Source: a virus
Lineage: Duplodnaviria; Heunggongvirae; Uroviricota; Caudoviricetes
Strand: one strand, 5' to 3'
Length of the DNA stretch: 42,002 nt
IMG/VR virus record: IMGVR_UViG_2563366918_000005
The notes under the pieces are model-generated. The model was not told the DNA's origin. It saw only the letters and a list, made by a program, of their open reading frames with translations, and did no database searches. The position numbers were made by a program, and so were the translations under genes. How positions within the stretch are numbered: position 1 is the first letter of the stretch; every line of letters starts with the position of its first letter. This document shows positions 23,650 to 25,614 of the stretch, one piece after another.

Positions 23650-25325
23650 TGTGATTGCCCACCCTGACCACTAACTGCATTCGCCATAGCTGACAACACA
23701 CTCGGATCCGAAGTTTTAGCTTCGCTTAGCGTCTTGGCACCCTGTGCCGCAGCCATCCCCATCGCCATCATTTGTTGCTGCTGTTGCTGCTGTGCCCGTT
23801 GCTGGCGAGCCTGCTCAACCTGTTCCTGCGGAACAATGACGGTTGGAGACACTCCAGACATATCAGCGAATGCATCGATTGCCTGATCAACGTTGAGTTT
23901 GTCGAGAGCTTCTGGTTTCGCTTGCGCAAGTTGACCAATGAAGTTGACCGTAGACGCCAGACTGGACAGGCCGATAGACTTCTGCGCCTGAGCCATGACG
24001 GAAATGTATTCGACCTTCAGGGGCATACCTTCCATCGCGTCAGGCGGGGGCGGCAGCATGTTTTTACGCACCATCATCGAGAAAGAGCGGTCAATGAGAG
24101 GATTAAGACATTCGTCGTTCAGACGCTCCAGAACCGGCCCCAACATCAGAAGTTTTTCTTCTTTCATTTCGATCACCGCTTCAACAGGCATCGAGCGGGT
24201 ATTGATGTTCTGCAACATCATGAACAGATCGACAAAGTAGGCGCTGTTAATGATTTGACGAGTGTCCTGAATGTCTGCCACCAAATCTGCTGTACTGGGG
24301 TTAACCAGATAAGCAGGCCTGAAGCCATCCTGACCAGTAATCTGATCGATATACGTGATGTCGCCAGGAAGAAGGGAGGCGCGCTGATTCTTGAGGGAAG
24401 TCGGAGCAACCATCGGCGGATTGGTGGCTTTATCAATCAACTGCGACTTGCGCTTCTGGAGAAGCTGCAATGCCTTAACAGATCCAAGCGCCAGCATACC
24501 CGGGCATGATGATCCATAAACATCTTCGCCGTTAACTTCCCAGCGCGGAGCCATAATTGGAAACTCATCGAATCCGGACTCACGCAACAACTTGTCGTTA
24601 TCGCCACCAACCTCGTAATAAACCGATTTGAATGGCTTGTTCTTGCTATCCAGCTTCGATGTATCGCGGTCAATGTTCGGGTAAACCGAATGCATCACTT
24701 CAATCCACTTCTCGTAGGTGCCGCTTTCCCACATGCTTTTTACGGATTCGCTGACGTTATTTAGCCCGAACTCCTGAACAAGCTGACGAACAGTCATAGA
24801 GAACTTGCGAAAACAGGTGTCCACACTGCCACGAGGTGAGTTAGCCAGGTAGTAACTGCCTATCGGGAATGGCATTGTGCGAATGATGTCCTCGTCATCC
24901 TCCAGCACTGCCATTGCACCAGTGCTGTATGTGCCGAGGCTTCCGTATAACTGCGGCAGCGACTGATAGAGATTCGACTTATTGAACATATCGTTCATGC
25001 GGTTCTGCACCGCCTCAAGCCACAACTTAACAGGGCCATAATCCATCATTTCAGGATCTGGCGTAGCCAGGCGAAACCACGGACGCGCGGGGCTTGTGAT
25101 GCCTGACATCATGCCGCTGGCGAGAGTGCGCGCCGCCATAGTCCCGGTCGAATCAATAATGCGTGTATTGCGTCGATCGTTACGGTTGACCTCAGAAGTC
25201 AGAAAGCGGGAACCACGTGGGTTGATGTAATCACTCAACTCGCGCCAGTGCGGCTCGAACGACTGACGCTCGCTTTCAAGTTGTGCGAACTGTTTGTTCA
25301 ATCGCTCTTTAGTTGTTTCCGCCAT
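23646..25325 (-). CDS. Portal protein (podovirus head-to-tail connector type)
   Basis: 559 aa; RBS GGAG 8 nt before ATG 25325; poly-Gln tract near C-terminus. Confidence 0.7.
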   Translation of the reverse strand: MAETTKERLNKQFAQLESERQSFEPHWRELSDYINPRGSRFLTSEVNRNDRRNTRIIDSTGTMAARTLASGMMSGITSPARPWFRLATPDPEMMDYGPVKLWLEAVQNRMNDMFNKSNLYQSLPQLYGSLGTYSTGAMAVLEDDEDIIRTMPFPIGSYYLANSPRGSVDTCFRKFSMTVRQLVQEFGLNNVSESVKSMWESGTYEKWIEVMHSVYPNIDRDTSKLDSKNKPFKSVYYEVGGDNDKLLRESGFDEFPIMAPRWEVNGEDVYGSSCPGMLALGSVKALQLLQKRKSQLIDKATNPPMVAPTSLKNQRASLLPGDITYIDQITGQDGFRPAYLVNPSTADLVADIQDTRQIINSAYFVDLFMMLQNINTRSMPVEAVIEMKEEKLLMLGPVLERLNDECLNPLIDRSFSMMVRKNMLPPPPDAMEGMPLKVEYISVMAQAQKSIGLSSLASTVNFIGQLAQAKPEALDKLNVDQAIDAFADMSGVSPTVIVPQEQVEQARQQRAQQQQQQQMMAMGMAAAQGAKTLSEAKTSDPSVLSAMANAVSGQGGQSQ

Positions 25326-25339
25326 TTCAATGACTCCGG

Positions 25340-25546
25340 TTACTGACCAAGCAGCGTTTTACCGCTGGTATTAGCGGTTGATGTGTCGCCCTGAGAACCG
25401 GTAAGCAGCGTAGAACTACGACCAGCAGCAGCGCGACGGCGACGAGTTTCTTCGTCGCGGGCATCAACAACGGCGGCATCCTGCTCCTGTGGTGCTGCCT
25501 GAACTTCTGGTGTTGCAGGCACTGATGGTGAGCTACCCATGCACAT
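25340..25546 (-). CDS. Hypothetical small protein upstream of portal
   Basis: 68 aa; RBS GGAG 8 nt before ATG 25546. Confidence 0.4.
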   Translation of the reverse strand: MCMGSSPSVPATPEVQAAPQEQDAAVVDARDEETRRRRAAAGRSSTLLTGSQGDTSTANTSGKTLLGQ

Positions 25547-25614
25547 ATCAATGACTCCGTACGCAATTAAATTATTACCAATTTAACCACATATGATTTA
25601 TTTATCGTAGATAG

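Follow-up and report, generated by a model that had tools for sequence, protein, structure and literature searches.

Near-identical ribosome-binding regions at the gp3 and portal gene starts of phiV10-like and Tyrion-like phages

We observed that two adjacent late genes of an E. coli prophage, gp3 and the portal gene, start with almost the same 16 nt. On sequence grounds, the two segments are the ordinary ribosome-binding regions of two known genes on the same strand, and their present function is best read as ribosome binding alone. The feature is a pair of ribosome-binding sites (RBSs); its particular point is that the two spacers are near-identical in the phiV10 and Tyrion lineages. Comparison with relatives points to this near-identity being derived and limited to one lineage. 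It may have been produced in a single step, when a short templated copy (micro-conversion) carried the gp3 start region onto that of the portal gene; we consider this reading about as probable as all others taken together.

Results

Two gene starts share a 16-nt segment

The window analyzed here is the whole 42,002-nt stretch of DNA. On its minus strand, the sequence CGGAGTCATTGA[T/A]ATG occurred at the start of a 68-aa gene and again at the portal start (Table 1). Without the leading C, the segment reads GGAGTCATTGATATG in the gp3 copy (25558..25544) and GGAGTCATTGAAATG in the portal copy (25337..25323). In context, the minus strand reads ...AATTGCGTA-CGGAGTCATTGAT-ATG-TGCATGGGT... at gp3 and ...GGTCAGTAAC-CGGAGTCATTGAA-ATG-GCGGAAACA... 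at the portal gene. Counting the preceding C, this is a direct repeat of 16 nt with 15/16 identity (94%) and a start-to-start distance of 221 nt, made up of 12 exact bases, one variable base and the ATG. Both copies consist of a Shine-Dalgarno (SD) GGAG, an 8-nt spacer and the start codon.

Self-comparison of 25000-26000 showed the 16-mer alone, with no extension of the repeat past 16 nt. A pattern search allowing up to 2 mismatches found no third copy of the motif in the window, and there was none among the window's 11 GGAG-N8-ATG sites. The original prediction that the same RBS-to-start segment precedes both the portal gene and the small gene upstream was thus borne out, and the local self-alignment recovered the repeat as a single direct repeat. 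The predicted length of 14 nt was slightly short.

Table 1. Positions of the two genes, their translation-initiation regions and the gp3 leader hairpin in the window
Feature	Position	Strand	Details
gp3 homologue, 68 aa (epsilon15 gp3 / PhiV10p06)	25340..25546	minus	PHROG 831, function unknown
Portal (head-to-tail connector), 559 aa (epsilon15 gp4 / PhiV10p07 homologue)	23646..25325	minus	Pfam PF12236, E = 8.9e-188
gp3 translation-initiation region CGGAGTCATTGATATG	25544..25559	minus	SD GGAG 25555-25558, spacer 25547-25554, ATG 25544-25546
Portal translation-initiation region CGGAGTCATTGAAATG	25323..25338	minus	SD GGAG 25334-25337, spacer 25326-25333, ATG 25323-25325
15-bp hairpin / imperfect palindrome, gp3 leader	25560..25593	minus	Conserved; outside the repeat

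The portal SD starts 2 nt past the gp3 stop codon (TAA), and 14 nt separate that stop codon from the portal ATG in the window. Adjacent late genes in phage operons can be translationally coupled, and portal translation is probably coupled to gp3. The position of the portal SD and a stop-to-start distance of at most 14 nt in all relatives resemble such coupling. However, coupling requires no sequence identity between the two starts and explains the layout, not the repeat.

Both genes belong to a phiV10-like module

We assessed both start codons against protein families. The portal protein aligned to PF12236 from residue 7 and to PHROG 332 from residue 1. For gp3, PHROG 831 covered residues 1-68. 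The Met-Cys (M1-C2) N-terminus of gp3 was invariant in 26 diverse homologues, which fixes the gp3 start codon. Judged by these alignments, both ATGs are true gene starts. In the record of the Enterobacter phage Tyrion, a ribosome_binding_site is annotated at both sites (gp04/gp05).

The 601 nt at 25150-25750 showed 99.5% DNA identity to Escherichia phage phiV10 and 79% identity to Salmonella phage epsilon15. The same stretch was present in 533 of 5,426 complete E. coli genomes (~10%), where RefSeq annotates the two genes as 'hypothetical protein' and 'portal protein'. Gene order in the window was TerL, a variable region, gp3, portal and a Bbp19-like gene, the last being the ORF downstream of the portal gene. 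Both identity and synteny with epsilon15 and phiV10 were found for the terminase - gp3 - portal module. These comparisons identify the window as an E. coli prophage of the phiV10-like (Uetakevirus) kind, and the motif lies at the RBSs of neighboring late genes that are both known.

Homologues of gp3 numbered 146, across Enterobacterales and beyond. Linkage of gp3 to the portal gene was tight in every relative examined, including one Pseudomonas and one Marinobacterium prophage. No Pfam family matched gp3 at E ≤ 1. The search for a solved structural relative of gp3 found none, giving only low-complexity matches to ribosomal proteins. We also considered the T7 gp6.7 family (Pfam DUF5476), which resembles gp3 only in being of similar size, in preceding a PF12236 portal gene and in its Met-Cys-x-Ser-Pro start. 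This assignment was rejected because the profile comparison was not significant (hhalign probability 3.4%) and only the N-terminal MC-x-S-P aligned.

Between the large terminase gene and gp3, the family shows a variable segment, which here carries tRNA-Arg(UCU), IS1 and two unassigned ORFs. No sigma-70 promoter consensus was found upstream of gp3. The last paired base of the gp3 leader hairpin abuts C25559, the first base of the gp3 motif copy. The hairpin sequence was more conserved across the family than coding DNA. Paired cells made up 90.6% of the hairpin alignment compared to 30-46% in slid controls, and covariation was not above that of shuffles. The element may act as RNA or as a DNA palindrome. 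Further upstream, a second palindrome (25636-25652) is similar to a sequence that the epsilon15 annotation lists as a repressor operator.

The match between the two starts exceeds chance in the window

A 16-mer with one mismatch anywhere in 42 kb is commonplace (~10 pairs per strand by our own arithmetic). The oddity is that the two copies lie in register at the start codons of neighboring genes. On its two strands, the window contained 11 NGGAG-N8-ATG sites, which can be paired in 55 ways. The gp3/portal pair matched at 8 of the 9 unconstrained positions; none of the remaining 54 pairs went above 5/9. By our own arithmetic, P(≥8/9) is ~1e-4 per pair, and ~0.006 such pairs are expected over all 55.

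We then compared these values with a family null in which every gp3-start type was paired with every portal-start type from outside the phiV10 and Tyrion clade. None of the 600 cross-lineage pairings reached 10/13 (maximum 9/13). Own gp3/portal pairs inside the clade had 10-12/13 identities. Because the motif was chosen by eye in a large scan, its apparent significance is inflated. These data suggest that the gp3/portal match exceeds chance at the level of the window, with the by-eye selection weakening the figures taken alone. The original prediction would have failed had the similarity been limited to the SD region by chance. The similarity was indeed limited to the SD, spacer and ATG, but the match across the 8-nt spacer was beyond chance for both the window and the family.

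Near-identical starts are confined to two groups that form one clade

To place the match among relatives, ~330 loci were gathered. IMG/VR was scanned with three kinds of query (the window protein, an alignment and two divergent gp3 proteins), and one genome per species was scanned with an alignment. Further loci came from a DNA pattern anchored on the conserved flanks GGTCAGTAA...ATGGCGGAA and from four annotated phages. In IMG/VR, the window protein and the alignment each brought up only loci of 99-100% identity; sequence diversity came from the alignment-based genome scan, the divergent-protein scans and the flank-anchored pattern. Genome contigs searched with a single gp3 protein gave no matches. 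The resulting comparison set held 149 distinct gp3-portal segments.

Among these segments, the matching pair was confined to the phiV10 group and the Tyrion group. The phiV10 group comprised 76 distinct segments from 211 loci (portal p-distance to the window ≤0.02), with GGAGTCATTGAT at the gp3 start and GGAGTCATTGAA at the portal start. In the Tyrion group (p-distance 0.14-0.17), the gp3 start was GGAGTCATTGTT and the portal start was GG[A/G]GTCATTGTC. Portal spacers were unrelated in all other lineages (p-distance ≥0.22). The portal start is GGAGTAGGCAGAG in epsilon15 and GGAGCGCGCAGAG, GGAGACCTGAGAG or TGGAGCGCGGCAG in other lineages. Outside the clade, portal spacers were mostly purine-rich, such as TAGGCAGAG (the epsilon15 type), CGCGCAGAG, ACCTGAGAG and CGCGGCAG, and they differed in almost every lineage.

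We built a neighbor-joining tree from gp3 and portal coding DNA, leaving the motifs out. In 200/200 bootstraps, the phiV10 and Tyrion groups together were monophyletic. The nearest tree neighbor, L228, has the portal sequence GGAGCGATTGCAG with GGAG..ATTG in register, and was sister to the clade in only 44% of bootstraps. At the gp3 site, gp3-type sequence was also found outside the clade, as GGAGCTATTGCT in the epsilon15 group and as GGAGTCATTGAA in the outgroup L238, whose portal start is unrelated. Because the form GGAG[TC][CT]ATTG at gp3 is widespread beyond the phiV10 and Tyrion clade, it is the older of the two. The presumed donor site thus carries its ancestral sequence, and outgroups have other sequences at the recipient site, as expected of conversion.

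In all Enterobacteriaceae-type relatives, 14 nt lie between the gp3 stop codon and the portal ATG. This constant gap implies that no DNA was added and that sequence was replaced in place rather than inserted. Gene order was likewise the same in all relatives. The local duplication that had been predicted thus holds at most as a 12-13-nt in-place copy in one lineage; no segment was duplicated, the similarity ends at 16 nt and no DNA was added.

The copies have since diverged slightly. At the portal site, phiV10 and Tyrion types differed at 3 of 12 positions, at a coding divergence near 14%, which suggests that their rate of drift since the origin of the clade has been close to background. In both sub-clades, the two copies differ at -1: this position is A/T here, and Tyrion-like phages have C at -1 and also GGGG and AATG. 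The base after the gp3 stop codon varies as well (CC/AC/TC). Because of these differences, the boundaries of the tract are not clean.

Discussion

The reading that we favor has a single event in the phage from which the phiV10-like and Tyrion-like lineages both descend, at the root of their clade. There, ~12-13 nt of the portal SD-spacer would have been overwritten, at unchanged length, by the sequence 221 nt upstream at the gp3 start. The presumed direction is from gp3, as the donor (ancestral) copy, to the portal gene, as the recipient (derived) copy. Tree and parsimony both point to a single origin and to this direction. The event could have been a template switch or a micro gene conversion, with the flanking GGAG and ATG serving as microhomology. 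Afterwards, the copy would have drifted slightly while serving as an RBS.

Close same-strand sites, here 221 nt apart, present a geometry that favors template switching. Templated mutation would be the most likely mechanism. Like templated mutation or short-patch conversion elsewhere, this case combines changes clustered in about a dozen nucleotides, a nearby same-strand template, constant length and microhomology at the edges (GGAG, ATG). It differs in that the event is reconstructed here from comparative sequence, and neither an intermediate nor a recurrence was seen among the relatives sampled. The classical examples of templated mutation are mostly quasi-palindromes, not direct repeats 221 nt apart. 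Several points count against a one-step copy: a patch of 12-13 nt carries little information, the motif was selected by eye, the tract boundaries are blurred, and the L228 portal site already has GGAG..ATTG, so that fewer point changes are needed than first appears.

That last point leads to stepwise convergence, which is a serious possibility although a less probable one than the templated copy. Here the portal spacer, a fast-evolving stretch of 8-9 nt, would have drifted from a GGAG-NN-ATTG ancestor to an 11/12 match with the gp3 start, through a handful of independent substitutions together with a shift of register by 1 nt, perhaps under selection for an A/U-rich unstructured spacer. The quick turnover of portal spacers and the ATTG of L228 at the same offset from GGAG agree with such a route. 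So do the one cross-lineage pairing that scores 9/13 by chance, the post hoc choice of the motif out of many gene starts and many windows, and the mere drift of the copies since the clade arose. However, no family pairing reached 10/13, the expectation in the window is very small, and the position of L228 as sister is poorly supported by the bootstraps. Starting from a state like that of L228 would still require about five specific changes. Chance also does not predict that the matching sites should be immediate neighbors. We find it improbable, in turn, that the repeat is a scar or substrate of a larger rearrangement, either as the remnant of a tandem duplication of a gp3 unit or as a module boundary for exchange or loss of gp3; of all the readings weighed here, this is the one we credit least. 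A 221-nt unit between 16-nt direct repeats could in principle be a substrate for slippage or unequal exchange, and in lambdoid phages exchange has been proposed to take place at short conserved gene-boundary sequences. Against this, the similarity is absent past 16 nt, no DNA has been gained in comparison with relatives, and each locus has one gp3 only. Deletion or tandem-duplication junctions were found in 0 of 325 fetched loci, and a precise gp3-deletion junction was absent from IMG/VR. The best-ranked of 536 E. coli records had the normal two-piece 369-bp arrangement throughout, in a search that joins pieces and may miss diverged, lower-ranked variants. Distances for gp3 and the portal gene were concordant in every lineage, which places no breakpoint at the repeat. 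Segmental or tandem duplication is ruled out by a repeat of 16 nt only and the lack of added DNA, and the rearrangement reading as a whole is largely refuted.

The shared SD-spacer could instead be a selected element, acting as a translational operator through which one trans-acting protein or RNA would control gp3 and the portal gene together or as a device for matched initiation, and kept alike by selection or repeated conversion. We regard this as unlikely. Position -2 is A in both copies of the phiV10 type and T in both copies of most Tyrion-type phages, and the linkage of gp3 to the portal gene in every relative examined is compatible with a functional partnership. However, this is the only co-varying position, and by our own rough estimate the chance of such a parallel change is ~0.05-0.08. 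One segment, L241, departs from the pattern (gp3 ...TTGAT vs portal ...ATGTC). Metagenome and IMG/VR scans for portal copies not of the phiV10 type returned only Tyrion-type contigs already in the comparison set and one duplicate type. The copies are already unlike at -1 and in Tyrion-like phages also differ within the SD (GGGG), no other start in the window has a third copy, and the rest of the family functions with unrelated sequences at the two starts. The complement TCAATGAC occurred twice on the mRNA strand, at distant sites inside coding genes, in line with the chance expectation. No Rfam family matched the leader (only the tRNA passed the threshold). Folding of 25270-25620 revealed no significant RNA structure that would join one copy to the other (z = -1.59), and the motifs take no part in the centroid structure. 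In phage T4, RegA targets are translational operators common to several mRNAs. The present case resembles them in having a short sequence over the SD-to-AUG region at more than one gene start. It is unlike them in having two copies, no candidate repressor, no family-wide conservation and copies that are drifting apart. A RegA-like operator regulon fails because there are only two copies and most of the family lacks the motif at the start of the portal gene. A narrower form, in which recurrent micro-conversion would keep the 12-13-nt SD-spacer identical, is a little less probable still. It would serve either matched translation of the portal protein and its Met-Cys partner (possibly a gp6.7-like head-internal protein) or a common operator of an unknown regulator. 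If this form were true, a first trace of concerted evolution would be visible at -2, where A changed to T in parallel in both copies of Tyrion-like phages.

The closest known system is the set of gp3/portal RBSs of Uetakevirus itself (epsilon15 gp3/gp4, phiV10 p06/p07, Tyrion gp04/gp05), which have the same genes, the same order and the same 14-nt spacing. We see no functional difference from these; what sets the present pair apart is the near-identity of the two spacers in the phiV10 and Tyrion lineages and not in epsilon15. The biological weight of the feature is very small, as these are the normal RBSs of a known pair of genes, in a phage genus that is well sampled. Finding a short exact repeat where two genes start does not in itself point to duplication, and it is comparison with relatives that gives the age and direction of such a repeat. 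At most, the templated copy may offer a tidy natural case in which about a dozen bases were pasted from one start region onto that of a neighbor, changing a spacer in a single step.

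Conservation of gp3 and variation at the portal start

We observed that gp3, which lies at 25340-25546 on the minus strand of the window, was strongly conserved in an alignment of relatives (A1), with a length of 66-72 aa. Its N-terminal Met-Cys was invariant, its C-terminus carried STLLTG...KTLLGQ, and it also had an APQEQD motif and the stretch RRRR(A)AAG. The portal gene always lay ≤14 nt downstream of gp3, including in Pseudomonas and Marinobacterium prophages. Neither a Pfam family nor a solved relative was found for gp3. The T7 head protein gp6.7, which is ejected at infection, is likewise encoded upstream of a portal gene, and its N-terminus (MCFSPK) shares the Met-Cys start of gp3; the hhalign probability for the two proteins was only 3.4%.

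A near-identical copy of the gp3 Shine-Dalgarno (SD) motif precedes the portal gene. At the variant locus L016/L120 (IMG/VR 2563366988_000007), the portal start reads GGAGTCATGGAAATG, where a spacer T has become G. This change places a new in-frame ATG two codons 5' of the normal start and only 2 nt past the SD. This variant is probably a neutral SNP, and it shows that the portal copy of the motif is free to vary.

Contents of the terminase-gp3 segment

Between gp3 and the large terminase gene, phages of this family have a variable "moron" slot (25570-27865 in the window). Its contents differ among phiV10, epsilon15, Tyrion and a Klebsiella phage, and consist of small ORFs, mostly antisense. 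The slot in the window holds a tRNA gene, a complete IS1, which may have cut off the 138-aa ORF, and a 144-aa ORF that matched no Pfam family above threshold (see table). A weak DicF-like match adjoined the tRNA on its downstream side (26083-26130, plus strand). At 16.9 bits (E = 0.89), it fell far short of the gathering score of 48 and is probably a chance match.

Features of the terminase-gp3 region
Feature	Coordinates	Strand	Remarks
Large terminase gene	27865-29340	minus	
144-aa ORF	27434-27868	plus	coiled-coil-like; in slot
IS1, complete	InsB 26552-27055; InsA 26974-27249	minus	in slot
138-aa ORF	26201-26617	plus	extends into IS1
tRNA-Arg(UCU)	25974-26050	plus	in slot
Palindrome	25636-25652	read on plus	ATTACC-TTTCA-GGTAAG
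15-bp hairpin (imperfect palindrome)	25560-25593	minus	UAUGUGGUUAAAUUG-GUAA-UAAUUUAAUUGCGUA; five G-U pairs

A conserved hairpin and a candidate repressor site upstream of gp3

The gp3 SD motif begins one base past the end of the hairpin. The same hairpin was carried by L001-L004 and most other gp3 loci, and its core, GGTTAAATTGGTAATAATTTAA, was almost invariant among lineages with 25% coding-DNA difference. Across 24 distinct sequences, the hairpin was 90.6% paired, but covariation was no higher than in shuffles. The hairpin matched no Rfam family. It may act at the 5' end of the mRNA, as a stabiliser or a processing site, or it may be a palindrome bound by protein. In the epsilon15 RefSeq record (L002, 2720-2947), the gp3 leader carries RNase III, IHF and repressor sites, all depositor annotations.

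The palindrome in the window resembles the ATTACC-N5-GGTAAT site upstream of epsilon15 gp3, which is annotated "repressor, lysogeny" and is overlapped by an IHF site. On the minus strand, the 11-mer GGTAATAATTT occurred twice, in the flank of the palindrome (25631-25641) and 62 nt downstream in the hairpin loop and arm (25569-25579). A search upstream of gp3 found no sigma-70 consensus promoter. Together, the epsilon15-like palindrome, as a candidate repressor site, and the repeated 11-mer suggest that transcription entering gp3-portal is under repressor control.
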